Of a DNA stretch of 64,000 bases, positions 101 through 64,000 are shown one piece after another; position 1 is the stretch's first letter, and each line of letters starts with the position of its first letter. The notes below the pieces were generated by a model. The model was not told where the DNA came from. It saw only the letters and a program-made list of their open reading frames with translations, and made no database searches. The DNA comes from an uncultured Clostridia bacterium (GTDB taxonomy: Bacteria; Bacillota; Clostridia; Christensenellales; Borkfalkiaceae): contig CANRDX010000001.1 in assembly GCA_947629485.1 (NCBI GenBank), positions 6,663 through 70,662 of the forward strand. The letters run 5' to 3'. The position numbers were made by a program, and so were the translations under genes.

Positions 101-1759
101 ATGAAGGAAGAGATCAGAATTTTATTATCGCAACAAGATTACGAAGGCGCTGCCGAACGGGTGAAAAAACTTTCTCCCGAAGAGGCGGCGTATATTTTAT
201 CGGAAGCGGGGGAGCACCTCATTCCGCTCTGCCGCGCGCTGGATAGCGAACAGCTTGCCGAGATCATCGTCCTGTTGGAGCCGTCCGTGCAGGAGGAGAT
301 CATCGAAGGCCTGCACGACGACGAGTTGCAGGATGTCATGGAGGACGTCTCGGTAGACGATACCGTGGATATCATCGAGGATCTTCCCGAAGAGGTCGCC
401 CGCAGGATCGCGGAGGAGGACGAGATCCTCGCCCTGCTCGAAGAGCGCAACTTCGCCGTCCTCAAACCGCTGCTCGCGTCCATGAACGAGATCGACCTTG
501 CCGCCGTTTTCGAGAGCGCGAAGGAAGAAGATCTTCCCGTACTCTTCCGCATTCTGCCCAAAGATCTTGCGGCGCAGATGTTCGTCGAGATCGAGACGGA
601 TACGCAGGAAAAGCTCCTCAAAAAGCTGACGGATAAGGAGATCAAAGCCGTCATGGACGAGCTTTTCCTCGACGATACCGTCGACCTCGTCGAGGAGATG
701 CCTTCGAGCGTCGTCAAGCGTCTGCTCGCCCAGAGCGACAGCGAAACGCGCGCCTACATCAACGAGATCTTGAAGTACCCGAAGGACAGTGCGGGCAGCA
801 TCATGACCATCGAGTTCGTCCAATTCCTGCCCACCATGACCGTGGGGGAGGCGTTCGATCGCATTCGCAAGACGGCAATCGACAAGGAGACGATCTACAC
901 CTGCTACGTCACCGACTCTGCGAACAAACTCATCGGACTTGTGACGGCGAAAGATCTTCTTCTCGCGCGGATGGAGCAGTCGATCTCCGAGATCATGGAG
1001 GATAACGTCATCTACGTCAACACGCAGGACGATAAAGAGGTCGTGGCGCGCAAGATCTCGGACTACGGCTTCCTCGCGATCCCCGTCGTAGACGACGAGC
1101 GGCGGCTGGTCGGCATCGTCACCGTCGACGACGCAATCGACGTCATCGAAGAGGAGAACACCGAAGACCTCGAACGCATGGTCGGTATCGTTCACGACAA
1201 CAAGCCGTATTTGAAGACGAGCGTGTTCTCCATTTGGAAGAAGCGCGTGCCGTGGCTTTTGATCCTGCTCGTCAGCGCAACGTTCACGGGGCTGATCCTG
1301 AACAAATTCGAGAGCCTGCTCTCTACCGCGATGCTCGCATGCGTCCCCATGCTCATGGATACGGGCGGCAATTCGGGTTCGCAGGCGTCGGTGACGGTGA
1401 TCCGTTCCCTTGCCCTCGGCGAACTTTCGACGAAGGACGCGGGCAAGGTGCTATGGAAGGAATTCCGCGCCTCGCTTCTCCTTGCGCTGACGCTCGCCGC
1501 CGCCTGTTTTGCAAAACTTATGCTCATCGACAGACTGCTGTTCCGCTTTGAAGGGTACGACGTCGTGACCTGCCTCATCACCTCGCTCGCGCTCTTCTGC
1601 ACCGTCATCATGGCGAAGTTTGTGGGTTGTATGCTCCCGCTTCTCGTCAAGAAGTGCAAGCTCGACCCCGCCGCCGTCGCAAGCCCCTTCATCACCACGA
1701 TCGTAGACGCCGTATCCCTGCTCATCTTCTGCGGCCTCTCGCTCGCGATCCTCGGCTGA
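101..1759 (+). CDS. mgtE: Magnesium transporter MgtE
   Basis: 552-aa ORF with an acidic helical MgtE_N-like N-terminus and tandem CBS-like segments (LIGLVTAKDLL, LVGIVTVDDAIDVIEEE). The C-terminal TM domain carries the PMLMDTGGNSGSQAS motif. A GAGGTG Shine-Dalgarno lies 4 nt upstream of the ATG. Confidence 0.9.
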   Translation: MKEEIRILLSQQDYEGAAERVKKLSPEEAAYILSEAGEHLIPLCRALDSEQLAEIIVLLEPSVQEEIIEGLHDDELQDVMEDVSVDDTVDIIEDLPEEVARRIAEEDEILALLEERNFAVLKPLLASMNEIDLAAVFESAKEEDLPVLFRILPKDLAAQMFVEIETDTQEKLLKKLTDKEIKAVMDELFLDDTVDLVEEMPSSVVKRLLAQSDSETRAYINEILKYPKDSAGSIMTIEFVQFLPTMTVGEAFDRIRKTAIDKETIYTCYVTDSANKLIGLVTAKDLLLARMEQSISEIMEDNVIYVNTQDDKEVVARKISDYGFLAIPVVDDERRLVGIVTVDDAIDVIEEENTEDLERMVGIVHDNKPYLKTSVFSIWKKRVPWLLILLVSATFTGLILNKFESLLSTAMLACVPMLMDTGGNSGSQASVTVIRSLALGELSTKDAGKVLWKEFRASLLLALTLAAACFAKLMLIDRLLFRFEGYDVVTCLITSLALFCTVIMAKFVGCMLPLLVKKCKLDPAAVASPFITTIVDAVSLLIFCGLSLAILG

Positions 1760-1779
1760 TCGATACATCGAATCCTGAT

Positions 1780-1803
1780 CCACCCGCACTGCGGGTGGTT
1801 TTT
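1780..1803 (+). terminator. Intrinsic terminator after mgtE
   Basis: 8-bp stem ccacccgc/gcgggtgg with a 3-nt loop, followed by ttttt, 20 nt after the mgtE stop. Confidence 0.75.
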
Positions 1804-1836
1804 CATTACACGGAAACGGTCTTGCCCCTTGCCCAC

Positions 1837-2340
1837 CCCTTCGAGGGGAAAATTTTGCTTTTCTGTCAAAGATTGATAATCTTTGGCGCAAAATTTTCTT
1901 GGCATTTGCCCATATGCACGGGCAAATGCTGACCGCCCCGCGCGCACTATTCTCTACTAAGCGCGGCACGAGCCGTAGGCGAAGTAACGCGGGGGTCTAC
2001 CCGCGTGAGAGGGTGTCACGAGCAACGCGAGTGACGGAAGGGGTGTCATTCCAAATTCGTCATACTGAGCTTGTCGAAGTATCACCATAGCAAGGCTTCC
2101 CCCTTCGAGGGGTCGCAAAACGCATTTCTGCACATCGGCACGGTGTGCCGTGTGCGCGTTTTGCGGTGAGTGAGCGCATTCGTAGCGCGAACGACGACCG
2201 AACGCGGGGTTCTACCCGCGTGAGACAGCTGTCACGTTAGTGACTGATGAGGGTTGGTTTCTAATGTGCCCCTCATTCGTCACGGCTTTGCCGTGACACC
2301 GGGGGAAGGCTTCTAATCACGTCATGAAGTATCACCTTAT
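1837..2340. repeat. Mosaic of GC-rich hairpin repeat modules (locus A)
   Basis: A string of short stem-loops. It shares about 170 bp with 7128-7296 and shares cgtcatactgagcttgtcgaagtatcacc with 47708-47788. It also contains GTCAC..GTGAC mini-palindromes at 2015-2035, 2231-2244 and 2279-2297. Confidence 0.8.
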
Positions 2341-2397
2341 TCTTATTCATCGGCAAAGCCTCTCTTGAACCGCGCGGATATCGCGCAATTCACCTAT

Positions 2398-2430
2398 AAA
2401 AAAACTCCCCCGCAAAAGCATGCGGGGGAG
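2398..2430 (-). terminator. Intrinsic terminator for the beta-propeller gene (works on both strands)
   Basis: Perfect 10-bp stem ctcccccgca/tgcgggggag (2405-2414 and 2421-2430). It is followed on the minus strand by a 7-U run (A7 at 2398-2404), 16 nt after the stop at 2446. Confidence 0.85.
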
Positions 2431-2445
2431 TAGGTTTTTATCGCC

Positions 2446-4335
2446 TCAAACGGAATGGATATGCAGGGTGCCGTCGAACACATAGAGCGATCCGTTTTCG
2501 CAGAACGCGCGCACGTTGTTGGGACTGCATTGGGCGGCGATGGGGATGCGGGCGGCTTCGGCGAGTTTTTCGCCGTCCCAGCGGAGCAGAAGATACACGG
2601 TGCGCGCGCCGTTCTCCATATCCGCAAGTCCCAGCCCGATGAGCGAACGCTCGCGGTCGATGTAGTATGCCTTGTACTTTGTCGCGTGCCCCGTGAGGTT
2701 GCCGCTCACCGTATAGGAGGCGACGGGCTGTGCGTTCCCGTCGTACAGCTCCACTTTGAGATCGCTTTGGCGCTCCTCATGCCCGATGCCCACGAGCAGG
2801 CCGTTAGAAAATTTTGCGAGCGAGGTGGAATAGCCGGGGATCGTGCCGCTGTTCGTATAGGTGATGTTGCCGAGGTCGGAAAGGTCGAACCGAAATACGG
2901 GATCGACGAAGGACGCGGCGGTGCAAACATAGGCGATATCGCCGTCGAAACGGGCGGCGCGCACGCGCTCTCCCTCGGGGGCGAACGCCTCCGCGCTCGC
3001 CGCAACTTCCAGCGTCTCCGCGTCCAAAACGAAGAGGCTCGCGCCGGTGCCCTCGGCGGTCTCCGCCGCCGCCGTCGCCCAATAGCCCTCTCCTTCTTTG
3101 ATTTTATCGTTCGTCGTGAGGAAGATGCGCAGCTTGCCGTTATATTCGTCCATCGAATAGCGATCGTTGAGCCGCCCCGCAAGGTCGGTCTGCGCGCGCA
3201 GTGCGAGCGCGCCGCCCTCACCCAATTCCACGCGCGCAACGGTCGTGTGATATTCGCGGTCGCCCGTCTCGGCGGCTTGGGCGAGGTATTGCCCCGTCAC
3301 ATAGCAGGCGGAGGGGGAGACGTACACGTCCTTCGTGAAGGAGAGAAGGGCGCGCGAATCGATGAATGTTCCCTCGGGCGTGAGCGTGGAGACGACGGCA
3401 AACACCGCCCGCTGTGCGTTTTCGGGCACATAGATATGTTCTGCGGGAATGTTTTCGAGCGCGCCGATCGCGCCGTACTGCGGCAGATACTCCTTTTCGT
3501 CGGAGAAGTCCGTCTCGGCGTGCACGAAGAACCTCGAAACGACGAGCAAATTGCCGTCCGTCATGCGGGAGGAAATGAGTTCTCCCGAGATAAAGCGGGC
3601 GTCTGTCACAGACATGGTAGCGGGATCTTCCGTGTCCACCGTGATGATTTCGGTGTAAGTCAGCGCCGTTTTCTTCTCATAGGCGGTGACGAGAATGGTG
3701 GCGGCGGAGAGATCGTCGTTTAGGTACATCTCGCGCGACCATTCATAGAACACGAAGCCCTCCTCGGGCAGGATGGTGAGCGTTCCGAGCGCCTCTGTGC
3801 TCTGCCCGTCGATGGGATACGCTTGAAGGACGAGGGGGAGGATGGCTTCGTCATATGTGGTATCGAAGGTGAGATAGAACGCCGTGCGCTGCCCGCGCTT
3901 CACGATATCGCCCTCGGTCACGCCTTCCGCCTGACTGTCCGTGATCTCCGCGTATTGGTCGCGCCCGTCGTCCGCCGTGTATCCGTCGTCCGTCTCCGCG
4001 CCGCCGCCGTTTTTTACGATGGGGCGAAGGGCGTCCGCGACAACGGCATAGCTCTTTGCGCCTTGCAGTTCGATTTTGCCGCCATTCCCTCCGTTTCCAC
4101 CGTTTCCGCCATTACCGCCGTTGCCGCCGATATCGTCTCCGACATTCGCGTCGGGTCCCATAGGCGCGTCGGCGTTTCCGCCCGCTCCCGGCAAAAAGAG
4201 CGCGAGATTCAGAACGAGCACTGCGGCGAGCGTGCACGAGAGCGCGGAGATCCCCGCCGCGCGGCGCGCCTTCCGTTTCCGTTCCGCCGCCGCTTTTTCG
4301 AGGATAGCTTTTGTCCTTTCCTCACAAGTTTTCAT
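2446..4335 (-). CDS. Membrane-anchored secreted beta-propeller domain protein (PF09826-like), co-transcribed with an ECF sigma factor
   Basis: 629 aa. About 28 aa of basic cytoplasmic N-terminus, one TM (ISALSCTLAAVLVLNLALFL), a (GGN)x6 linker, then a long extracytoplasmic region ending in motifs typical of the bacterial/archaeal Beta_propel family (FVDPVFRFDLSDLGNI..GTIPGYSTSL). AGGAAGG RBS. The start overlaps the sigma gene stop by 14 nt. Confidence 0.7.
   Translation of the reverse strand: MKTCEERTKAILEKAAAERKRKARRAAGISALSCTLAAVLVLNLALFLPGAGGNADAPMGPDANVGDDIGGNGGNGGNGGNGGNGGKIELQGAKSYAVVADALRPIVKNGGGAETDDGYTADDGRDQYAEITDSQAEGVTEGDIVKRGQRTAFYLTFDTTYDEAILPLVLQAYPIDGQSTEALGTLTILPEEGFVFYEWSREMYLNDDLSAATILVTAYEKKTALTYTEIITVDTEDPATMSVTDARFISGELISSRMTDGNLLVVSRFFVHAETDFSDEKEYLPQYGAIGALENIPAEHIYVPENAQRAVFAVVSTLTPEGTFIDSRALLSFTKDVYVSPSACYVTGQYLAQAAETGDREYHTTVARVELGEGGALALRAQTDLAGRLNDRYSMDEYNGKLRIFLTTNDKIKEGEGYWATAAAETAEGTGASLFVLDAETLEVAASAEAFAPEGERVRAARFDGDIAYVCTAASFVDPVFRFDLSDLGNITYTNSGTIPGYSTSLAKFSNGLLVGIGHEERQSDLKVELYDGNAQPVASYTVSGNLTGHATKYKAYYIDRERSLIGLGLADMENGARTVYLLLRWDGEKLAEAARIPIAAQCSPNNVRAFCENGSLYVFDGTLHIHSV
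4078..4128 (-). repeat. In-frame 9-nt periodic (GGN)n codon repeat inside the beta-propeller gene
   Basis: Encodes GGNGGNGGNGGNGGNGG. The plus strand reads as iterated gtttcc/attacc-gcc units. Confidence 0.8.
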
Positions 4336-5044: not shown

Positions 5045-6916
5045 ATGAAGTTGAAGAAGTTCACCTGTGCGATCACCGCGCTCGCGATGGCGGCGGCTTT
5101 CGGACTTGCGGCCTGCAACGGGCAACAGGGCGATAAAGACGGCGACCACACCCATAGCTATACCATGAAAAGCAGCGAAACGCAGCATTGGGAGGCGTGT
5201 TCCTGCGGCGAAGAAAAGGCGGATAGCCGAGGCGCGCACGTCGATGAAGACGGCAACGGCGAGTGCGATGTGTGCGGATACGGCATGGGCGAATCCCACG
5301 GCCACGTCTGGGCGTGGAAGTACGAAGGGGACTATCACTGGCAGGAATGCACCTGCGGCGAAGAAAAAACGGGCAGCCGCGGCTTGCACAGCGACGACAA
5401 TAAGGACGGGGAGTGCGACGTCTGCAAGGCGCCCGTCAAGACCGAGGACGGCGGCGGGAGCGGCAGCGGCGACGAACATACGCATTCCTATGTATGGATG
5501 CGCGACGGCGCGCAGCATTGGCAGGAATGCTCCTGCGGGGAGACGACGGCAAAGACGCCGCACACCCAAAACGCCAACTATCGCTGCGCATGCGGCTATG
5601 CCTTCGACGCGCCCGCGGAAAACGGGCTGTCGTCTACGAATTATTGGATCATCGGGACGTTCACCGACAATAAGGACGGCGGCACGACGGGCTGGGGCGA
5701 GACCCACAGCGATCAGTGGAAATTCCACCGCCTCATCGGAAAGGATACGGAAGGAAGGACGCAATACGTCTTTGAACGCGCCTTCAAGGGCGGCGAAGAG
5801 TTCAAGATCGTCAAAGACGGCGGCGGGTATTGGGACGGCGAGATCAACGCGGACCATGTGAGCGCGAACGCGAAGAAGCTGTTCGACGGCAACGACGGCG
5901 GCAATATCAGAGTCGTCGGCGGCGCGGGCTACTACGTCATCACCCTGCACGCGGGCAGCGGAACTCCCTCGGTAGACGCCGGATTGCTCTATGGCGAGGG
6001 GAGCAAGCCCCAGCCCCACGAGCACGAATATTCTTCGGCGTGGGAGAGCGACGAAAGCGGCCATTGGCACCCTTCCATCTGCCAGCACACAGGACTGAAA
6101 CAGGACGAAGCGGCGCACACCTTCCAAAACGGAAGCTACACCTGCTCCGTCTGCGGCTACACAAAACAGCATACCCATGTCGGGGGCGAGTGGGTGAACA
6201 ACGCAAGTTCGCATTGGAAAAACTGCACGCTCTGCGGCCGGATGATGCAGGAGACCGAAGCGCCGCACAGCGGCGTGCCTTGCTCCGTCTGCGGCTACAA
6301 TGTCGCCGTCTCGGGGGCGTTGGAATACGAATACGATGAGGCGAGCAGATCCTACTTCGTCACGGGGTATGTGTACGACGAGATCGAGGAAGAACTGCGT
6401 ATCCCCGCAGAGTATAACAATAAGAAGGTCACCAAGATCGCAGGCCAAGCGTTTATGGGGTGTAATAAGATCCGAACGGTCATCATCCCCGATAGCGTCA
6501 CCTGCATTGACGTCTATGCATTCTATAACTGCGCATACCTTGCGAGCGTGAGCCTCGGCGCGGGCGTGAAGGAGATCGGCATGTCGGCATTCGGGAACTG
6601 CTCCGCGCTTTCGTCGATCGCCTTCCCCGCGAGCCTTACCAAGATCGGCAACAGCGCCTTTGAAAACACGGCGATCACCGAATTTACGGTGGGCAAGAAC
6701 CTTGTGGAGATCGGCGCATTTGCTTTCCGCACGAAGGATCTTCATGCGGTCACCTTCGAGGTGACGGCAGGCTGGAAGGTGCGCAACCTGCCTTTCAGCG
6801 AAGAAAGCGAAGATGTGAATGTTTCCGACCCCGTGACGAATGCGAAGAAAATGTCCGTTGCATTCTTCCAAGACAACGTTAACGGCCGCGCCAACTATAC
6901 TTGGACGCGCGGCTAA
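5045..6916 (+). CDS. Surface lipoprotein with five Cys/His-rich modules, a CBM-like beta-sandwich segment and C-terminal BspA-type leucine-rich repeats
   Basis: Signal peptide with lipobox FGLAAC. Repeated H-x-H..HW-x-x-C-x-CG..C-x-x-CGY modules. The segment GEEFKIVKDGGGYWDGEI..GNIRVVGGAGYYVITL resembles carbohydrate-binding modules. An LRR_5-like stretch (IPDSVTCIDVYAFYNCAYLASVSLGAGVKEIGMSAFGNCSALSSIAFP) follows. GGGAGGAAG RBS. Confidence 0.8.
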   Translation: MKLKKFTCAITALAMAAAFGLAACNGQQGDKDGDHTHSYTMKSSETQHWEACSCGEEKADSRGAHVDEDGNGECDVCGYGMGESHGHVWAWKYEGDYHWQECTCGEEKTGSRGLHSDDNKDGECDVCKAPVKTEDGGGSGSGDEHTHSYVWMRDGAQHWQECSCGETTAKTPHTQNANYRCACGYAFDAPAENGLSSTNYWIIGTFTDNKDGGTTGWGETHSDQWKFHRLIGKDTEGRTQYVFERAFKGGEEFKIVKDGGGYWDGEINADHVSANAKKLFDGNDGGNIRVVGGAGYYVITLHAGSGTPSVDAGLLYGEGSKPQPHEHEYSSAWESDESGHWHPSICQHTGLKQDEAAHTFQNGSYTCSVCGYTKQHTHVGGEWVNNASSHWKNCTLCGRMMQETEAPHSGVPCSVCGYNVAVSGALEYEYDEASRSYFVTGYVYDEIEEELRIPAEYNNKKVTKIAGQAFMGCNKIRTVIIPDSVTCIDVYAFYNCAYLASVSLGAGVKEIGMSAFGNCSALSSIAFPASLTKIGNSAFENTAITEFTVGKNLVEIGAFAFRTKDLHAVTFEVTAGWKVRNLPFSEESEDVNVSDPVTNAKKMSVAFFQDNVNGRANYTWTRG

Positions 6917-6931
6917 AACGCCGAACCTCAA

Positions 6932-6958
6932 AGGGGACCGCTCCGCGTCCCCTTTTTC
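6932..6958 (+). terminator. Intrinsic terminator
   Basis: Stem aggggac/gtcccct with an 8-nt loop, then ttttt, 16 nt after the stop. Confidence 0.75.
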
Positions 6959-6988: not shown

Positions 6989-7430
6989 ATTCGAGCTGCC
7001 CCCGTTGAAGGGGGCGGCTCCCGCGCAGCGGGTGGTGGGGGTTGAATTTCCAACGCGTCATTCCGAGCGAAGCGAGCGAATCCCCCCATACGCAGTCCGC
7101 AAGGCTTCCCCCCTTGAAGGGGTTGAACCCTTGTCGCCCCTGCAAGGGAAAATTTTGCTTTTCTGCCAAAGATTGATAATCTTTGGCGCAAAATTTTCTT
7201 GGCGTTTGCGCATATGCCCGCGCAAACGCTGACCGAACGCGGGGGTCTACCCGCGTGAGAGGGTGTCATGCCGCGTGCGGCATGACGGAAGGGGTGTACG
7301 CAATGAAGAATAACACCCCCTCCGTCGCGCAAAGACAGCGCGCCAGCTCCCCCTCAAAGGGGGCGCCAAGAGGTTACCGCGTCATTCCGAGGGGGAGGGC
7401 GGCACGGCTTCGCCGCGATGGGTGGGGGTG
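6989..7430. repeat. Mosaic of GC-rich hairpin repeat modules (locus B)
   Basis: 6993-7050 matches 47644-47700. 7128-7296 matches 1837-2052. gcgtcattccg occurs at 7055-7065 and 7379-7389, and as its reverse complement at 17827-17837 and 18069-18079. 7391-7428 matches 47604-47641. Confidence 0.85.
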
Positions 7431-7489: not shown

Positions 7490-7519
7490 TTGACATAGAA
7501 TGTGCGCGCATGTTATAAT
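7490..7519 (+). promoter_or_regulatory. Sigma-A-type promoter for the 1406-aa lipoprotein gene
   Basis: TTGACA (7490-7495), 18-nt spacer, TATAAT (7514-7519), in an AT-rich spacer region. It would give a leader of about 90 nt. Confidence 0.6.
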
Positions 7520-11913: not shown

Positions 11914-11954
11914 GTCCCCGCACGGGCAAAATGACCTGCCCCCGTTTACGGGGG

Positions 11955-12360
11955 CGGGTGTCACGGCTCCGCCGTGACAGGTGGGGGTAAACACTTGTCG
12001 CCCCTGAAAGGGGAGATGTCACGAAGTGACAGAGGGGTTATAACCCTTTCCCCCGCTACGCGGGTACTTTCCCTTTCAGGGACAGCCTAACCCTCATCAG
12101 TCACCTGCGGTGACAGCTTCCCCCGTAGACGGGGGAAGCCCTACCCCTTTCAAGGGGGAGGGTGGCGAGCGCAGCGAGACGGGTGGGGGCAAACACTTGT
12201 CGCTCCTGAAAGGGGAGATGTCACGAAGTGACAGAGGGGTTATAACCCTTTCCCCCGCTACGCGGGTACTTTCCCTTTCAGGGACAGCCTAACCCCCATC
12301 AGTCACCTGCGGTGACAGCTTCCCCCTTCGACGGGGGAAGCCCTACCCCCTTCAAAGGGG
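11955..12360. repeat. Tandem duplication (two units of about 202 bp) of a multi-hairpin cassette (locus C)
   Basis: aaacacttgtcgc..gggggaagccctaccc starts at 11989 and again at 12191. The two units differ at fewer than about ten positions by eye. Confidence 0.9.
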
Positions 12361-12404
12361 GCAGCGCGCAGCGTGGGCGGAGGGGGGAATTTCACCCGTT
12401 CCCA

Positions 12405-12433
12405 TTGACGGATCGCAAAAGCGGCGGTATAAT
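12405..12433 (+). promoter_or_regulatory. Consensus sigma-A promoter for ansA
   Basis: TTGACG (12405-12410), 17-nt spacer, TATAAT (12428-12433). Confidence 0.7.
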
Positions 12434-17740: not shown

Positions 17741-18112
17741 GAGATGTGGAGAACGAACCGTAGTAAATTTTGTTTTGCGAGGTGCGGACTTCGTATCAGG
17801 GGATTCACTCCCCCACTGCGTGGGGGCGGAATGACGCATTTCCCTCAAGCAAAACAAAATTTGTGAACTCAATTCCTTGCGTTAGGCGGAATTCACTTCC
17901 GCCGTGCGCGACCCAATTTGGCAAGCCCTGTTGCCTTAATGACTTTGAGAACAGAAAAGTCCAGCGGGCGATACGGCTTAGAGATGTACAATACTAACCC
18001 CTCGTAAAGTTTTGTTTTGCGAAGAATGGACTACGTATAAGGGGATTCACTCAACCCCGTTGGGGTTTCGGAATGACGCGGTGCCCCAAAAAGCAAAACA
18101 AAATTTACGAAA
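17741..18112. repeat. Two MITE-like palindromic elements (about 100 nt each) in the ruvC-ruvA spacer (locus D)
   Basis: Copy 1 lies at about 17761-17868 and copy 2 at about 18004-18112. Both are bounded by inverted repeats aaattttgttttgc / gcaaaacaaaattt and both are preceded by gagatgt (unit period about 240 bp). Confidence 0.8.
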
Positions 18113-20837: not shown

Positions 20838-21140
20838 TCTTCGTCGCGCTTGCGTTTTCCCTCGGTCATTTACCTCATAGTAAACTCCCGTCGGGAAAGC
20901 CGCGCGCTCCTCGACCTGCTTGCTTCTAAAAAGAGGCATTCTCCGTGAGGACGACTTGTTTCGTCGCGCTTGACGGCGGGTCGCGTACCTTTGTACGCTC
21001 CCCTTGTCAACGCTCGCTTTCCTTGTCTTGCTCGTTTCTAAAAACAAGCGACCTTCCTTCTCTGTAAGGGTGGCTCCCTTCGTCGCTTACGCGCGCTCCT
21101 CAACCTGCTTGCTTCTAAAAAGAGGCATTCTCCGCAAGGC
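20838..21140. repeat. Direct and degenerate repeats in the queA-tgt spacer (locus E)
   Basis: gcgcgctcctc(g/a)acctgcttgcttctaaaaagaggcattctccg occurs at about 20902-20946 and about 21091-21135. cttcgtcgcgcttg-like units occur at 20838, 20959 and 21078. Confidence 0.8.
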
Positions 21141-47569: not shown

Positions 47570-47880
47570 CTTGTGAGGGGGAAGCCCTACCCTTCGCTTG
47601 CGAGGGGGAGGGTGGCACGGCTTCGCCGTGACAGGTGGGGGTAGAGCTGCCCCCTTTGAAGGGGGCGGCTCCCGCGTAGCGGGTGGTGGGGGTTGATTTT
47701 CTTAATACGTCATGTTGAGCTTGCCGAAACATCACCGCATTATAATAAGGTGATACTTCGACTTCGCTACGCTTCGCTCAGTATGACGGATTAGAACGTG
47801 CGCGCGGGGCAGTATGACGATTTTAGCCTTCCCCCCTCGGGGGGAAGGTGCCGAGCAAAGCGAGGCGAATGAGGGGCAAT
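47570..47880. repeat. Mosaic of GC-rich hairpin repeat modules (locus F)
   Basis: 47604-47641 matches 7391-7428 and is related to 11955-11988. 47644-47700 matches 6993-7050. 47708-47736 and the inverted copy at 47749-47788 match 2058-2086. Confidence 0.85.
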
Positions 47881-47938
47881 ACTTTAATTACGTCATCGTC
47901 CCGCCCTTTGACACCGATCAAGCGGCGTATCAGAATAT

Positions 47939-58053: not shown

Positions 58054-58066
58054 AGCGTTGCCTTTC

Positions 58067-58100
58067 AAGGAGAGCTTTCCTACGCGGAAAGCTCTCCTTT
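58067..58100 (+). terminator. Strong hairpin after pnp
   Basis: Perfect 14-bp stem aaggagagctttcc/ggaaagctctcctt with loop tacgc. The U-tract is short. Confidence 0.6.
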
Positions 58101-58123
58101 CAAAAGTGATAAAGGAGATAGCA

Positions 58124-61100
58124 ATGAAAAATATAAGGCGTTTTATCCTTGCCTTTCTCGGTGCGCTTTCGCTCTCCCTCCTCGTGCTCGCGGGCTGCGG
58201 CTCGGGCGCGGAGAAGGCGGAGCTGACGCTCGACGCAGACGGCGTCGGCACGCTCACAAAGAGCGAATACACCGTGGAAGTCGGGTCGAATCTCAAAGAT
58301 CTTCTCAAAGATGTCACGCCTCAGGCGCAGAACGGATTCACCTTTGAGGGGTGGTTCAACGGCGATACTCCCATCGGCGACGACGATACCATGCCCGCGG
58401 GCGGGTTGAAACTCACGGCGAAATATCAGACGACTTACACCGTCGCGATCTATAAAGAGACCGCGGCTTTGGGCGTCTATCCCGCTGCGGCGGACGAGCA
58501 AACGACGCACTCCGCAAGATATAAATCTACGGTCACATACGATCTTGCGCCCGTCACGGGCTACGAGCTTGATGTCGCCAAACCCAACGTGCTCTCGGGC
58601 ACGGTCGGCGTAAACACCGTGCTCACCGTCTATTTGAAGCGCGCGAGCTTCCGCGTCGGCTACGAAGTCAACCTTCCCGAAGGGGCAGAGGCGGAAGGCT
58701 CCGTCGAGGCGGCATACGCGCGGTTCGGCACGGAGACCGCGCTCGCGGATGGCAAGGGCTTCCGTGCGCCCGCAAATCTGCGCTTTTTGGGCTGGTCGCT
58801 CACGGCGGACGGCGAAGTGCAGTATCATGCGGGCGACAATTTCCCCGTCAACGGCGATACCAAGCTCTATGCGGTGTGGCAGAAGGGGATCACCGACGTC
58901 TTTGAAATCAGCGACGACGTGCTCTTTCCCTCCACCGAAGAGGGAGAAGAAAACGTCATATATCTGCGCAGAGCGGGCTTTGACGGGGACGTCGCGGGCG
59001 TTCTGAACGACGGACGGTTCTCCTTCAAGGAAGAGGATCGGGAAGTCCTTGCGGGCGCGATCCTTCCCTCCGGCACCCGATTCTTCTACTATAAGGAAAT
59101 CGGAACGGGGACGTTCGCCGCTGCGGACGGCACGGGCGCCTCGCTCCGTTTGGAGCGCGAGAAGGCGTTCCTCACCGAGGACGGCGAAGTGACGGAGGGC
59201 ACCTACTCCGTCGACGAGCTGACGCGCGAATATATCTTCGAGAGCGAAGAGAGCGAATTCCGTTTCCAACTCGGTCTGAGCGGCGGCGACTATGTTTTCT
59301 ATCGCGAGAACGCGGCGCGCGGCCCCGAGCGCGGATTTTATATCTATAAGAATGCCGAGGGCGAGATCGAGGACAACATCCTCTTCCTCGACGGCATGGT
59401 AGACGGCAACGGGATCGCTACCGCCACCGCCTACACGCTCGAAGATGGCACGCTCGTGCCCGTGCGGATGTTCTACTATTCTCTCGATACCGCCGTTGAA
59501 GGGCTATACCATGTCTTTGACGCAGAGGGCGAGCGCCTGTTCGGTCTGCGCCTCGACGCCTATGAGGGCGAGGCGGGCGGCCGGCGGCTCAAAGGCGCTT
59601 TCCGCACCTCCGACGGGTACGAACAGCTCTCCTATGTGCTCTATGACGAGATGTTCTTCTCCGACGATGTGGGGCGCCACTATCTCACGGTAGACGGATT
59701 CGGAAACGGCGCGATCACCCTTCAAAAGACGTCGGGCGGCGGCGAGACCGTCCGCGGGACGTACGTCCTTAAAATGTTCACCTTCAACGAATTCAGCTCC
59801 TACGTCGGGAACTTTACGGGCGGGCAGGAATGGATGGAATTTACGACGGAGGCGGGGCAGAAGCTCCTTCTCTCCGTGCACAGCATCGTCTATAACGCCG
59901 ATCCCTACTATCTCGTCCTCTCCGAGGAGCCTTATATGCAGGATTGGGCGGGTTCTCCCGTCTCCATCTACGGGGAGAACGATATGCACGGCTCCCTTCC
60001 CCAAAACGCGGCGTTCCTCTTCGAGGGCAACGGCGTCGCCTACGTCTATGCGTGGTTCGTCGATACGGGCATCGGAGACAAGGTCTATGAGAACATCGAC
60101 AGCGGCACCGTCGAAGAAGTGGGCGGCGGAGAGTATATCTTTACCAGCTCGTTGTACGGCTTCCACTTCTCCTTCCGCGAGGAAGAAGGTCTCATCGTCG
60201 TCTCCCCGCGCGACATCATAGAACTTACCACGACGGACGGCGCCCTCTCTCTCGACAGCTGGGGCGCGCTGACGTACGGCGGGAAAACGTATCCCTACGG
60301 GGAGTGGACGGTCGAGGCGATCGGAGAGGGCACAAAGGAGATCGAGGGCAAGGAGAACAACCTCTATATCTTCACCTTCGGCGGCGAAACGCACTATGTC
60401 AAGGTCGAAAGCGGCGCGCAAAACGAGCCTGTTTACACGCTGCTCAGCCACCGCGCCGTCTACGACATCGCATTGAAGCAGTATGCGATGCAGCAGCAGG
60501 GCTTCGAGAGGATGTACTTCCCCGACGCGAATTGGGAGACCGCGGCGCAGACAGAGGCGGGCGCGGAGTGCGTGATCGCCCTTCGTCTCACGAGCGGAGC
60601 CGAAGAATTCGTGATCTACGGCACGGCGCATAAATTTACTTCGGACTATCTGTTCCGGAGCGCGATCTCGGAAGAAGATCTGCTCGGGCTTGGCGTTACG
60701 CAGGAGATGATCGACGCGCTTTCGGCGTTCCGCTTCGTTCCCGACGCCGCCGCGGGGCAGCTTCTCGTCAGCGACAGATTCACCCTCACCGCGGAGGGCG
60801 ACACGGGTTCTTTGAAGCTGGACGGCTACGGAAAGGGCGTGTTCACCCCCGAGGGCGGCGCCCCCGTTGCGGGCAGCTACGACTATCTCGCCACGCGGAA
60901 GGACGGCAGCGAGTTCATCCTCTTTACCGAGGAGAACGGCAAAACGCACTATTTCTCCGTCGTGCAGTCGGACGATCCCTACTTTATCGAGAGCGCCGAT
61001 GAGATGGCGGGTCTTCGCTACTACTTCTACACGCTGGATTCGGAGAGCTACGGCATCTACTACGACGCCTACATCGTGATCTTCGGGGACGGCGAACTGT

Positions 61101-64000
61101 GGTACGGCACCGACGCGCGCGGCAACGACGTCTACGGTACCTACACGCCCACCGCCCGCGCCGTCGTCAGCTACCTCGGCATGGATTGGGATGAATATCT
61201 CGTGACGATCTCGGCTGTGGATAGGGACGGGATCTTGCAGACGGAGTCCTTCACCATCATCATGGCGCAGGTTCCTTTCAGCGTGGGCACGGAGTATGTG
61301 TACCGCGAACGGGATGAGGCGCAGGTGCTCAACTATATCGTGGAGGGCGGCGGATATATCCGCGGCAACGGCTACGACGCCGCGACCTATTCTGACGGCG
61401 AGATCGTCTACTATGGCGAGATGAGCCGCGTAGACGTGTACGATAGATCTCCGCTCTACGAAGATTATCGCGCCGAAAACAACTTTGAAAACGGCAAGCA
61501 GATCCTCTTCCACGCCTACTATGCGGAGCGGAACGGGGAGCAGGTGGTCTTCGGATCCTACGAGTCCCTCCTCTTCGATATCATAGACGACGGCGTCGCG
61601 GCGCTCAGAGACGACTATTCGGGCACGTACGCCTACTTCACGCGGGGCGCGCGCAACGAGCAGACGATGTATCTCGACGGACACGGCAACGCCACGCTCT
61701 ACGCGGCGGACGGCTCTGTCACGGAGACGGGCAGCTATGCCCTTGCGCCCGAAGTGGACGAATACACGATGGTGTACAGCGGCACGACGACCTTCCGCTT
61801 CCGCCTCGCCTCCATTTTAGACGTGAACTCGACGTGGCTCATCTACAACAAGATCGAGGACGAGACGGTGTACACGACGGAGGATTGGGCGATCCTTCTT
61901 CTCAGCGGATACGGCTACTACGTCGACGACGAGGGCAACCCTTACTGCGCGATGTATGTGGACGAATGGGGCACGATCACCTACGGGGCTTCCTATTCCT
62001 ACAAGACGGATACGCTCGTTCAGTTCGAGACGCTGGACGGCGACATCACCTTCTTCGATCTCAAAGACGGCTCCTTCTCCATCAACCATGAGGAATTCAT
62101 CGTGCGCGACGGCGTGCTCTACGGCTATCAGGGACCTAAGGAGATCATCGGCGATCTCATCATTCCCGAAGATGTCAGAGTGATCGGCGACTACGCCATG
62201 ATGACGCTCACGAAGATCGGTCCCGCGGACGGCTGGCACACCTCCACCATTCAGCTCAACAACGTGGAGAAGATCGGCAAATATGCCTTTGCGAACATAA
62301 AGACCTTCAACATCGTCTCGCTCTCTTCCGATAAACTGGTCGAGATCGACGACTATGCCTTCTCGTGGCGGGATGTCAACGGCACCGCGGCGGGAGGGAA
62401 CGCGGGCGTGAACGCCCTGCAAAACGTGAACTTCCCCAACGTGAAGCGCGTCGGAAACTACGCCTTCTACGGCGTGCACAGCCTCGGCCTCGGCATGGTG
62501 ACGTTGGGCGCGGTGACGGAGATCGGGGAATATGCCTTCACGCACCCCGCCATGATCTCGGGAGAACGCATGACGCTCGATCTGCGCAGCGTCGATCTCT
62601 CCAAGCTCTCCATCGCCGATACCGCCCTCGTCATTCTCGACCGCAACAACAATCTCAAAGAGATGTTCGGCATCAAAGTGCTCGTGAGCGGGATCGCCGG
62701 GGTCGCATTCCGCGACAGCCTTCCCGAAGGCGCGCGCGAATATGTGGTCGTATCGAGCGACTATACGACGGAAAACGTGTTCGAGGGCAAGGCGATCCTC
62801 GACTTCGAGGGCGGCGTGCTCTACGTGCTCGGGCAGCCCACGGAGAGCGAGGGCATCTTCGCCGCGACGAAGTATTTGTACAACGCGGAAGATAATATTT
62901 GGAGCGAGGGAAGCGGAAGCGCGTTCTACGGCGTAAGTTCCGCGCAGGGCGTGGAATTCATCACGGAGGCGGGCGTTTCTGCGTCGTTCCAATCGACTGC
63001 AACCAGTGTGGAGATCGGCGGGCAGACCTTCCTCTTCACGAGCGCAGAGCATACCATGTCCGTAACAAAGGACGGAGAAACGAGCGAACTTGCGTTCTCG
63101 TTCACCGTGGAAGTGCAGTCGGATATCCTCGGCGGCACAAACGTCGCGCTCCGCTTTGAAGACGTGCGGCTGGACGGCGAACCCGACCTGTACGGCTCGC
63201 CCTACTTCGACGGCGTGCTCACGCTCTATTTCGTCGAGGAAGCGGATCTCGTCAAGGTCACGGTGGATCTCGGCGGCAAGACGGCGGAGAGCGCCGTGAG
63301 CGGCGCCGTGCTTTACAGCGGCGATCAGGCGTACCGCGGCGTGTTTACGAGACCCATTATGGGCGAAGAGGGCGCCTATCTCACGCTCGAACTTGCGAAA
63401 AAGCAGGAGAGCGGGGAATATGTGTTCCTCACGGAGGGCGGCACGAACCGCAACAGCAACGATCCCGAGAACATTTTCTGGACGTTTACCGTGACGGCGG
63501 GGGATCGCCAGACGATATATACCGTGCACATTTCCTCCGAGACTTCCGAACTCGTCGTCGATACGCGCGAGATCTACGCGCAGACCGACGTCTGCGACGC
63601 GGAAAATCTCTACCGCGCCTCCTTCACGGGCGAATCGCTCGAAACGATGGATTCGCTCACGAAGTTTGAAGTCTACGATACAAAATACAGCTATTGGACG
63701 GAACAGCGCGGCATTGCGACGAAGGTAGGGGAAAATACCTTCGAGGTCGCCGTCCACAACCTCTACGAAAACGGCAAGCGGATCTCGCGCGTGTACACCG
63801 TTATATTCCATGCGGCGGCGGGCGGCGCGGCTTCCATCGAGGTCTCCTATAAGGATTATCTGCAATATACCGTGTACACCGCGGGGCGCGATGAACAGAA
63901 GCCGCACTATTCGCTCACCATCCTCGCCAACGAGGAAGGGGAGATCTACGGGCTGACGGGTTCCATCCGAAGCTACGAATGGTCTACCGCAAACGAGTGG
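58124..64000 (+). CDS. Giant surface lipoprotein (more than 1958 aa, 3' end outside the window) with Listeria-Bacteroides-type repeats and a central BspA-type LRR block
   Basis: Not in the ORF track because it has no stop inside the window. The frame starting at ATG 58124 (AAGGAG RBS) contains no listed competing ORF, and all other plus-frame ORFs here are short. N-terminus MKNIRRFILAFLGALSLSLLVLAGCGS (lipobox). GFTFEGWFNG and LRFLGWSLTADG repeat signatures. An LRR_5-like block lies around 62150-62650 (IIPEDVRVIGDYAM..VEKIGKYAFAN..VKRVGNYAFYG..VTEIGEYAFTH). The three long minus-strand ORFs here are antisense shadows. Confidence 0.8.
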   Translation, partial: MKNIRRFILAFLGALSLSLLVLAGCGSGAEKAELTLDADGVGTLTKSEYTVEVGSNLKDLLKDVTPQAQNGFTFEGWFNGDTPIGDDDTMPAGGLKLTAKYQTTYTVAIYKETAALGVYPAAADEQTTHSARYKSTVTYDLAPVTGYELDVAKPNVLSGTVGVNTVLTVYLKRASFRVGYEVNLPEGAEAEGSVEAAYARFGTETALADGKGFRAPANLRFLGWSLTADGEVQYHAGDNFPVNGDTKLYAVWQKGITDVFEISDDVLFPSTEEGEENVIYLRRAGFDGDVAGVLNDGRFSFKEEDREVLAGAILPSGTRFFYYKEIGTGTFAAADGTGASLRLEREKAFLTEDGEVTEGTYSVDELTREYIFESEESEFRFQLGLSGGDYVFYRENAARGPERGFYIYKNAEGEIEDNILFLDGMVDGNGIATATAYTLEDGTLVPVRMFYYSLDTAVEGLYHVFDAEGERLFGLRLDAYEGEAGGRRLKGAFRTSDGYEQLSYVLYDEMFFSDDVGRHYLTVDGFGNGAITLQKTSGGGETVRGTYVLKMFTFNEFSSYVGNFTGGQEWMEFTTEAGQKLLLSVHSIVYNADPYYLVLSEEPYMQDWAGSPVSIYGENDMHGSLPQNAAFLFEGNGVAYVYAWFVDTGIGDKVYENIDSGTVEEVGGGEYIFTSSLYGFHFSFREEEGLIVVSPRDIIELTTTDGALSLDSWGALTYGGKTYPYGEWTVEAIGEGTKEIEGKENNLYIFTFGGETHYVKVESGAQNEPVYTLLSHRAVYDIALKQYAMQQQGFERMYFPDANWETAAQTEAGAECVIALRLTSGAEEFVIYGTAHKFTSDYLFRSAISEEDLLGLGVTQEMIDALSAFRFVPDAAAGQLLVSDRFTLTAEGDTGSLKLDGYGKGVFTPEGGAPVAGSYDYLATRKDGSEFILFTEENGKTHYFSVVQSDDPYFIESADEMAGLRYYFYTLDSESYGIYYDAYIVIFGDGELWYGTDARGNDVYGTYTPTARAVVSYLGMDWDEYLVTISAVDRDGILQTESFTIIMAQVPFSVGTEYVYRERDEAQVLNYIVEGGGYIRGNGYDAATYSDGEIVYYGEMSRVDVYDRSPLYEDYRAENNFENGKQILFHAYYAERNGEQVVFGSYESLLFDIIDDGVAALRDDYSGTYAYFTRGARNEQTMYLDGHGNATLYAADGSVTETGSYALAPEVDEYTMVYSGTTTFRFRLASILDVNSTWLIYNKIEDETVYTTEDWAILLLSGYGYYVDDEGNPYCAMYVDEWGTITYGASYSYKTDTLVQFETLDGDITFFDLKDGSFSINHEEFIVRDGVLYGYQGPKEIIGDLIIPEDVRVIGDYAMMTLTKIGPADGWHTSTIQLNNVEKIGKYAFANIKTFNIVSLSSDKLVEIDDYAFSWRDVNGTAAGGNAGVNALQNVNFPNVKRVGNYAFYGVHSLGLGMVTLGAVTEIGEYAFTHPAMISGERMTLDLRSVDLSKLSIADTALVILDRNNNLKEMFGIKVLVSGIAGVAFRDSLPEGAREYVVVSSDYTTENVFEGKAILDFEGGVLYVLGQPTESEGIFAATKYLYNAEDNIWSEGSGSAFYGVSSAQGVEFITEAGVSASFQSTATSVEIGGQTFLFTSAEHTMSVTKDGETSELAFSFTVEVQSDILGGTNVALRFEDVRLDGEPDLYGSPYFDGVLTLYFVEEADLVKVTVDLGGKTAESAVSGAVLYSGDQAYRGVFTRPIMGEEGAYLTLELAKKQESGEYVFLTEGGTNRNSNDPENIFWTFTVTAGDRQTIYTVHISSETSELVVDTREIYAQTDVCDAENLYRASFTGESLETMDSLTKFEVYDTKYSYWTEQRGIATKVGENTFEVAVHNLYENGKRISRVYTVIFHAAAGGAASIEVSYKDYLQYTVYTAGRDEQKPHYSLTILANEEGEIYGLTGSIRSYEWSTANEW

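Follow-up and report, generated by a model that had tools for sequence, protein, structure and literature searches.

What is the hairpin-rich unit that occupies positions 7130-7297 of this 64,000-nucleotide (nt) stretch of Clostridia DNA (the window), and why do its stems stay paired where their sequence differs from that of a sister copy at 1828-2046? The comparisons described here suggest, with slightly better than even confidence, that the unit is a composite member of a modular DNA repeat family, dispersed and defined by its hairpins, which is similar in kind to the REP, BIME and REPIN elements and specific to a clade of uncultured, spore-forming Clostridia of the rabbit gut. Its architecture is a nest of three levels: a basic unit; a block of ~112 nt; and a 50-nt module X, present in copy 1. 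The element is not tied to its neighbouring genes, and the content of the clusters in which it lies differs between related genomes. It is not a gene-specific regulatory RNA, and the repeat family is probably mobile.

Composition and nesting of the repeat

An earlier note, made from the letters of the window, had described a cassette present twice, with compensated substitutions in one stem. Its individual features were recovered. Sequence reading and a repeat finder both give a direct repeat of 99 nt with 90% identity, 1837-1935 (copy 1) versus 7137-7235 (copy 2). Both copies hold the nested palindrome, with the arms gaaaattttgc (1848-1858 and 7148-7158) and gcaaaattttc (1888-1898 and 7188-7198) around an inner hairpin, caaagatt-gat-aatctttg; T1866 versus C7166 is the only difference of the palindrome between the copies. 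The hairpin that follows reads gcatttgccc/gggcaaatgc at 1902-1929 and gcgtttgcgc/gcgcaaacgc at 7202-7229, with two base pairs (bp) altered on both arms. The tail aacgcggggGtctacccgcgtgaga is common to the two copies, and the extra segment of copy 1, said to be of about 50, is exactly 50 nt long (1936-1985). What did not hold is the picture of one cassette in two copies: the repeat is real, but the unit at 7130-7297 is a composite of nested modules; the window contains a third tail hairpin (2201-2225), within a third, diverged unit at 2097-2255; and about 100 copies recovered from some 10 genomes define a dispersed family.

This family was collected with the inner 19-mer of the palindrome, for which shuffled sequences predict 0 matches, so that its recurrence is not due to chance. 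A scan of one genome per species returned more than 111 stretches, most of them from metagenome-assembled genomes (MAGs) of uncultured Clostridia from rabbit ('Lapin'), in about ten species bins; many copies sit at MAG contig ends. The family context is present in 98 matches among the stretches listed. A profile search (nhmmer) for copies without the exact 19-mer added only two clear cases, in the retrieved loci L123 and L103 (L-numbers denote such loci throughout). Because the 19-mer served as the search key, its conservation is inflated, and with two extra copies the variation of the inner hairpin within the subfamily cannot be judged free of ascertainment. Plasmid and phage collections contain no blastn match to the element, and an origin from either was rejected for that reason.

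In contigs of rabbit-gut metagenomes, sequencing depth is 300-2400 over the modules as compared to 4-15 on flanking genes. Over window positions 1400-2700, runs X1, X2, X5 and X9 cover the modules 50-400 times more deeply than the flanking unique genes. At this depth the family makes up a sizeable share of the intergenic DNA of the community, and short-read contigs are broken by it. Hairpins occur at 12.8 per kb of intergenic and 4.4 per kb of genic DNA. The very high copy number, together with the spread across species, argues for active amplification.

All 98 family-context matches have the same module order, M1-M2-M3-M4-M5 (coordinates in Table 1). M1 is a small C-run/G-run hairpin. M2 is the nested palindrome, in which (A)TTCTG(C) stays unpaired, on the 5' side only. 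M3 is a 10-bp hairpin whose loop opens with ATATG and which is followed by the linker TGACCG. M4 is a 7-bp hairpin whose loop closes with CTA, followed by GAGA. M5 is a hairpin of free sequence between conserved flanks, after which a tail ends in GGGGT(T/G). A head and C-run/G-run hairpin of the copy 2 type open 283 units in the sequence searched, which comprised the window and 124 loci, ~0.9 Mb in all and a fraction of each genome.

The simplest form is the basic unit of ~50 nt. It opens with the head CTYGSY, after which comes a small C/G hairpin; a short linker then leads to a second, variable hairpin, and the tail closes with GGGGTT. Among sequences with an M1 head the commonest form is this short unit without M2-M4, as in CTCGCTGCCCCTCGTAGGGG-AAGT-CCCCGAAGGGG-AAAGGGGTT and CTTGCCCACCCCTTGAGGGG-TGGGT-GTCACGTAGTGAC-GGAAGGGGTGT. 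Comparison of short forms (AGGGGA/AGT, the slash marking a joint) with long forms (AGGGGA/GAATTTTGC...GAGAC/AGT) places the ~112-nt block, M2-M3-TGACCG-M4, between the two hairpins of the basic unit. The joints of both empty forms are present in metagenome contigs: 1848 to 2011, without the block (AGGGGA/AGT); and 1935 to 1986, without module X (TGACCG/AACGCGGG).

Module X has the form CCCCGCSCGCA..GSGCGGCACGAG-hairpin-GAAGT and measures 48-59 nt. Some 45 copies lie in several host contexts, including X inside X; TGACCG forms the left flank in 25 of these ~45, and TGAGTG, ATTCTG, ATCCTG, TTGTCG or CACG elsewhere. Neither insert is accompanied by a target-site duplication, filled and empty forms of both X and the block differing by the insert alone with an ambiguity of at most 1 nt. 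Terminal inverted repeats are likewise absent, since the ends are unrelated both in the block (GAAAATTTTGC...GTGAGA) and in X (CCCCGC...CGAAGT); an 8-bp complementarity of the ends, CACCCCTT/AAGGGGTG, occurs only in the host unit of one subfamily. Without consistent terminal repeats or duplications, a reading as a miniature inverted-repeat transposable element was rejected. Hairpins do lie near both ends of module X and of the block. Basic units themselves pair in all arrangements, 28 head-to-head, 27 tail-to-tail and 31 in tandem, with GGGGTTTTGAAACCCC as the recurrent tail-to-tail junction.

Stem pairing and placement

The pairing of the stems was followed across the family. M1-M3 were aligned for 64 distinct copies: standard pairs fill 98.3% of the pair cells, five pairs are altered on both sides, and none of 500 shuffles reaches the observed covariation score. 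When the 3' partners are slid, pairing falls to 33-59%, and RNAalifold independently predicts the same helices. The outer stem of M2 covaries (GAAAA/GAGAA/AAGAA...; variants GAAAATTTTGC, GAGAATTTTGC and AAGAATTTTGC, each with a matching 3' arm). In other subfamilies it is wholly replaced, by GGAGCAACGCG/CGCGTTGC, AATAATTTTTGCGC/GCGCAAAAATTATT, GCGGCGCA/TGCGCCGC or GCAAAACGC/GCGTTTTGC, in some of them together with a different inner hairpin. For M4, copies taken by position only show 5-6 fully complementary stem haplotypes (ACGCGGG/CCCGCGT, ATGCGGG/CCCGCAT, GGGCGGG/CCCGCCC, GGGCAGG/CCTGCCC and GCGCGGG/CCCGCGC); a set selected by regular expression adds GGACGGG/CCCGTCC, and an alignment chosen for its pairing shows compensation at four of the seven pairs. 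Amid these changes the linkers, rich in purines, stay constant, and so do the TTCTG bulge and the motifs ATATG and CTA in the loops.

Paired changes had been taken as an argument for selection on structure. The structural half of that argument stands, as stems are kept paired family-wide, but pairing alone does not prove selection on folding. Template switching can produce compensated changes, perfected palindromes and inverted loops, each in one step (PMC8794818, PMC8604942), and for this reason paired substitutions by themselves are no proof of such selection. Products of the template-switch type are present: in L025 and L097 a perfect palindrome stands in place of the bulge, and L041 has its loop inverted. 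The gcgtttgcgc haplotype of copy 2 also occurs in L061 and L105, the majority haplotype of M3 being GCATTTGCCC/GGGCAAATGC; the two compensated pairs that distinguish the window copies are therefore one inherited variant and not two independent events. A general caution follows, namely that compensatory substitutions in a palindromic repeat are not, alone, evidence for an RNA gene.

Both copies fold far more stably than shuffled sequence. As DNA, copy 2 reaches -54.3 kcal/mol (z = -8.6) and copy 1 has z = -6.4. Two asymmetries mark one strand. The bulge of M2 is on the 5' side without exception, and the triloops of M5, read in unit orientation, are C-GNA-G in 26 cases and the complementary TNC in one. 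Mini-hairpins of the GCGNAGC type are exceptionally stable as DNA (PMC13037366). C-GNA-G triloops on one strand, together with a bias toward gene direction, fit single-stranded DNA.

This bias is seen in the placement of the units. The window is core chromosome, ~58% G+C and Clostridia-like, with nearly all genes on the + strand, and the sequencing runs that contain the region are all DNA metagenomes of the rabbit gut, from which the organism comes. Hairpin clusters lie at 1825-2340, 6990-7430, 11920-12400 and 47570-47900, and in several intergenic spacers of 400-700 nt, short GC-rich hairpins with purine-rich linkers between them fill the whole length. The clusters occupy the spacer between a terminator and the next promoter. 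The two copies do lie downstream of genes, as first described, but not directly at the gene ends, because intrinsic terminators of the upstream genes intervene (1780-1798 and 6930-6955, a T-run after each). Inside the units no promoter-like site was found; the strong sites at 7490-7519, which copy 2 precedes, and at 12405-12433 belong to the downstream genes, and an own promoter for the element was rejected on that ground. Among the loci, convergent spacers hold 21 copies and divergent spacers 2. Of the copies between tandem genes, 29 read in the sense direction and 10 in the antisense; when 79 copies are set against the majority direction of the local genes, 57 are co-oriented and 22 opposed (p = 1e-4, for sites that are not independent).

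Comparison of loci shows how loosely the clusters are attached to their neighbours. The spacer between mgtE and the beta-propeller gene measures 686 nt in the window. In a related MAG with the same synteny (L122: mgtE, convergent beta-propeller gene, sigma factor, leucine-rich repeat (LRR) gene) it measures 169 nt, with two terminators and no cluster. In another relative (L123) a cluster follows the mgtE homologue with its unit in the opposite orientation, and a third relative has a plain spacer of 120 nt. Ten scanned genes with units on both sides are all housekeeping genes, for example gyrB, rpsP, luxS, alaS and spoIVA.

Probable mobility and the alternatives

If the family is mobile, its spread could involve the following: the hairpins would act as single-stranded DNA, on the strand with the bulge and the C-GNA-G triloops; a trans-acting, structure-specific putative enzyme, most plausibly an IS200/IS605-type HUH transposase, would recognise the hairpins and copy or move modules into the linkers of existing units; and the stems would stay paired both because only foldable copies propagate and because replication template switching may transfer a change from one arm to the other. 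IS200/IS605-type Y1 transposases act on the lagging-strand template (PMC5027513). The strand bearing the bulge and GNA loops appears to be this template in most copies, with replication direction inferred only from gene strand and GC skew.

The family is not a member of any named family, and works most like REP/BIME/REPIN. With those elements of Proteobacteria, which are linked to RAYT (TnpA_REP; PMC3116915, PMC3333891, PMC3733652), it shares: short, GC-rich, imperfect palindromes in very high copy number; a strictly extragenic position close to the 3' ends of genes; a division into several subfamilies within one genome; frequent arrangement as inverted dimers and in mosaic clusters; conservation of structure above sequence; and a strand-defining asymmetry. 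Unlike them, its basic unit has two hairpins in ~50 nt and carries nested inserts of 112 and 50-60 nt. From IS200/IS605 elements and their hairpin derivatives ('peel and paste'; PMC5027513, PMC3201880) come further likenesses: no terminal inverted repeats; no target duplication; hairpins near both insert ends; strand-specific features; and an orientation bias with gene direction, or possibly that of replication. The modules here are, however, far smaller than known derivatives.

Several observations weigh against this account. Searches by tblastn with three approximate Y1 queries (IS200, IS608 and E. coli RAYT) gave no hit at E < 0.2 in the window and the 124 loci (0.9 Mb, part of each genome). 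In this set no RAYT gene was found, nor a gene for an IS200/IS605 transposase, nor any full-length element that has these ends, and no transposase or recombinase was found near any unit. The conserved GTAG/CGTC tag of REP elements is missing, GTAG occurring only in some M1 loops; CGTCAT-type modules are found elsewhere in the clusters and are not part of the unit studied. The left flanks of module X share only ...YG, with no single fixed motif, in contrast to the tetra- or pentanucleotide targets of IS200/IS605. The place and orientation of the block in its host unit are constant in nearly all copies, and what spreads may therefore be the whole composite, or recombination may be at work, instead of one insertion after another. 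Orthologous sites are among those counted for orientation, and the counts are to that extent not independent. Finally, assembly comparison gave no true case of within-species insertion polymorphism at one locus: the copy 2 spacer is identical in three other assemblies (L114, L115 and L117); the spacers of L116 and L001 differ, on contigs of ~3x coverage that end in repeats, and neither was relied on; and the rearranged copy 1 spacer of L001 is from a 3x-coverage assembly and possibly chimeric.

These points leave room for a more specific proposal, which we regard as possible but hold only tentatively. It supposes an undescribed single-stranded-DNA mobile system in which the linkers of hairpin units receive the 112-nt block and the 50-60-nt module X as strand-specific insertions without duplication; the enzyme would not be a classical RAYT, and would take the bulge, the ATATG and CTA loops and TGACCG as signals for recognition or cleavage. 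Y1 genes of class 2 occur only sparsely beyond a few phyla, and those of class 1.1 (IS200-type) are common in Clostridia (PMC6006769). A survey of REP elements lists no Firmicutes and names as an open question the origin of REP families without a dedicated transposase (PMC3733652).

Two other known systems help to delimit the comparison. The resemblance to integron attC sites is one of principle only: structure is conserved over sequence, and extrahelical bases of one arm set the active strand; here there are no R/L boxes (GTTRRRY), no gene-cassette arrangement and no integrase context. Compensatory changes are also reported for pneumococcal BOX, RUP and Bacillus cereus bcr1; the last two carry repeats at their ends and duplicate their target sites. 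Compared by description, with no relationship of sequence to be expected, these repeats (boxA-B-C for BOX; review PMC3184786) are like the present family in being intergenic, multicopy, 100-200 nt long and modular, with stable predicted folds; they differ in that terminal repeats and duplications are absent here and the nesting of module in module is much more developed.

The units could instead be DNA domesticated by the host, which we think unlikely. They, and especially the AT-rich palindrome CAAAGATT-GAT-AATCTTTG in a genome of 58% G+C, would then bind a chromosome-organising or topology protein, much as gyrase and IHF bind to BIME elements, or would insulate transcription units from each other as cruciforms or roadblocks. 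The strict terminator-to-promoter placement and the avoidance of divergent promoter regions favour a host role, as does a 19-mer conserved in at least five subfamilies with different outer stems, although that conservation is inflated by its use as search key. A protein operator is conceivable too, given that in Marinomonas the same palindrome precedes genes judged ParD-like by eye. The inner hairpin is, however, replaced elsewhere (by GAAAGGT..ACCTTTC, by CTCAACAGCCC..GGGCTGTGAG and in the third copy of the window), the whole cluster is missing at the site of the related species, cluster content is variable, and binding to double strands would leave the strand-specific bulge and GNA loops unexplained.

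Structured RNA is about equally improbable. Transcribed by read-through or from its own promoter, the element would serve as a stabiliser or processing element of 3' untranslated regions or as a multicopy small RNA, its stems under selection for the RNA fold. The earlier note had aptly left the choice between RNA and single-stranded DNA open. The helix-preserving covariation that was found is also what a DNA hairpin predicts. Every helix covaries, the predicted RNA fold of copy 2 is strong (-88.8 kcal/mol, z = -7.6), the units show a sense bias behind genes, and some M5 hairpins contain tandem G·A motifs; repeats of Firmicutes such as bcr1 are, moreover, reportedly transcribed. Yet the reverse strand folds nearly as well (z = -7.1). 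Mismatch haplotype events show no excess of G·T over A·C, as would set RNA apart (4 versus 5-8 in M1-M3, 4 versus 6 in M4), and the loops are mostly GNA triloops, GNRA not being enriched (27 of 592 tetraloops). The Rfam check suggested at the outset returned no match at gathering score for the whole window, and at E <= 10 only hits at chance level in the two spacers, none of them over the unit. The units lie beyond intrinsic terminators with no internal promoter-like site, 22 of 79 copies run antisense to the genes around them, and the element is absent from the relative's syntenic site.

Least probable are neutral or decaying palindromes, with arms homogenised by template switching (quasipalindrome correction) and clusters grown by slippage and recombination: the perfected bulges and the inverted loop are its predicted products, and one M4 copy with arms from two haplotypes and a tandem duplication at 11973-12360 of differing copy number among assemblies also speak for it, but correction alone would erase bulges and asymmetric loops, yet TTCTG, ATATG, CTA and the purine-rich linkers are kept across sequence-unrelated stems, module order and orientation within units are fixed, and copy number and species spread point to active amplification.

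REP/BIME repeats and their transposases are well studied in Proteobacteria and essentially undescribed in Clostridia. Read as a REP/BIME-like repeat, the family is a nested example in a group where none were known. It provides a dataset in which many subfamilies can be compared, with stems fully replaced and unpaired motifs conserved, and with both the filled and the empty form available at each of three nesting levels; such data could reveal the features read by a hairpin-recognising enzyme, and the enzyme itself. As the repeats break short-read assemblies, recognising them would aid the assembly and binning of an abundant rabbit-gut clade.

Feature coordinates and further observations

Table 1. 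Modules and units of the hairpin repeat in the window
Feature	Positions	Strand	Details
Copy 2, M1 (5' half of basic unit)	7130-7148	+	head CTTGTCG and hairpin CCCCT-gca-AGGG
Copy 2, M2 (nested palindrome)	7148-7198	+	outer stem 7148-7158 / 7188-7198
Copy 2, M2 bulge TTTTCT (family motif TTCTG)	7159-7164	+	5' side
Copy 2, M2 inner stem, loop GAT	7165-7174 / 7178-7187	+	
Copy 2, M3 (10-bp hairpin GCGTTTGCGC / GCGCAAACGC)	7202-7229	+	loop opens with conserved ATATG
Copy 2, conserved linker TGACCG	7230-7235	+	favoured entry point of module X
Copy 2, M4 (A-ACGCGGG-ggtcta-CCCGCGT-GAGA)	7236-7260	+	hairpin; closes the inserted block
Copy 2, inserted block	about 7149-7260	+	
Copy 2, M5 (3' half of basic unit)	7261-7297	+	GGGT; hairpin GTCATGCCG-cgtg-CGGCATGAC (7265-7286); tail GGAAGGGGTGT
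Copy 1, M1 (CTTGCCCACCCCTTCGAGGGG)	1828-1848	+	
Copy 1, M2, M3 and linker	1848-1935	+	M2 1848-1898; M3 1902-1929; TGACCG 1930-1935
Copy 1, module X (CCCCGCGCGCA...GCGCGGCACGAG-ccgtagg-CGAAGT)	1936-1985	+	50-nt two-hairpin insert
Copy 1, M4 and M5	1986-2046	+	M4 1986-2010; M5 2011-2046
Copy 1, block including module X	1849-2010	+	
Third, diverged unit, same architecture	2097-2255	+	M1 is cttcccccttcgagggg
Third unit, outer stem cgcaaaacgc/gcgttttgcg	2114-2123 / 2156-2165	+	ATTTCTG bulge; different inner hairpin
Third unit, M3-type segment, M4 and M5		+	segment with GACGACCG at its end; M4 2201-2225; M5 2226-2255
Plain basic unit without insert, inverted, beside copy 2	7314-7370	-	
Plain basic unit, head as in copy 2	11994-12039	+	CTTGTCGCCCCTGAAAGGGG-AGAT-GTCACGAAGTGAC-AGAGGGGTT; host unit without block

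The genes of the window include mgtE, a beta-propeller protein, an ECF-type sigma factor, BspA-type and InlB-repeat surface proteins, asparaginase, upp, ruvCAB, queA, tgt, yajC, secDF, recJ and relA. Pfam scans of 26 window genes found chromosomal housekeeping functions only (such as ruvCAB, queA, tgt, secDF, recJ, relA), and a scan for transfer RNA and transfer-messenger RNA found none.

Other repeats accompany the units. A module headed (G)CGTCAT recurs in the clusters, at 7057-7085, 7378-7392, 2058-2085 and 47708-47745 (for example gcgtcattccgagcgaagcgagcgaatcc and ttcgtcatactgagcttgtcgaagtatcacc); it is one insertion context of module X, and is reminiscent of the REPs with a CGTC tag in other phyla. 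In the spacer ahead of the asparaginase gene, paired inverted basic units form a tandem duplication of 202 nt, 95% identical (11973-12360). Other assemblies of the same species have one copy (L118) or a partial copy (L117) of it, which may reflect a variable copy number or a collapse of the repeat where assembly coverage is low.

Between ruvC and ruvA lie two elements of ~100 nt (17765-17862 and 18007-18105) with long terminal inverted repeats, AAATTTTGTTTTGCGA...AAGCAAAACAAAATTT. They enclose a small hairpin and a GGAATGACGC motif, and the second overlaps the predicted start of ruvA. Similar ends, ATTTTGTTTT/AAAACAAAAT, bracket whole units in one MAG (L019, L042, L092, L095 and L106). A different repeat type is found between queA and tgt (20901-21139), in three copies of 50 nt (CGCGCGCTCCTCGACCTGCTTGCTTCTAAAAAGAGGCATTCTCC...).

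In many copies of one MAG, the unit is followed by a conserved multicopy segment of ~170 nt, TTCGAGCGA...TTGTTCATCAATTAGGTC...GGACATTAAGCCTACGGTAGTGTGGCAAATGGGGTGCGCTCCGCAAAAGCGTGGTTTTGCTACGCGCAG (L019 381-560, L075, L092 4295-4470, L095 and L106 3006-3180). The 5' end of a group II intron was considered for a GTGCG-containing repeat beside copies of one MAG and rejected, the repeat spanning only ~170 nt before other modules follow.

Two sets of loci stand apart from the family. In Marinomonas (L005 311-329, L007 272-290 and L100), the identical 19-mer palindrome has GATA/TATC flanks and is found ~45 nt ahead of a small gene. The gene product, with MHVSLTSELEARIKAKVESGLY at its start, is ParD-like by eye only; the palindrome is probably an unrelated operator that is identical to the family's inner hairpin by chance. 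In other Bacillota MAGs (L081 4213-4231, L083, L085 and L093), tandem palindromes resembling CAAAGATTAATAATCTTTG lie immediately ahead of genes, in alternation with AATAAGGAATACAGGAGG; the arrangement is leader-like and unrelated to the hairpin family.

Two observations concern coding sequence. The BspA-type LRR gene contains two in-frame repeats of ~90 nt, 71% identical (5186-5425), which encode a Cys-rich HW(E/Q)xCxCGEEK...D(G)ECDVC motif when translated by eye. At 58058-64000 (+) a codon-usage gene caller gives a very high coding score to a single open reading frame, no shorter than 1981 codons, that runs past the window end. The list of open reading frames, which omits those leaving the window, shows only opposite-strand shadows there; the frame may be the gene of a giant protein.

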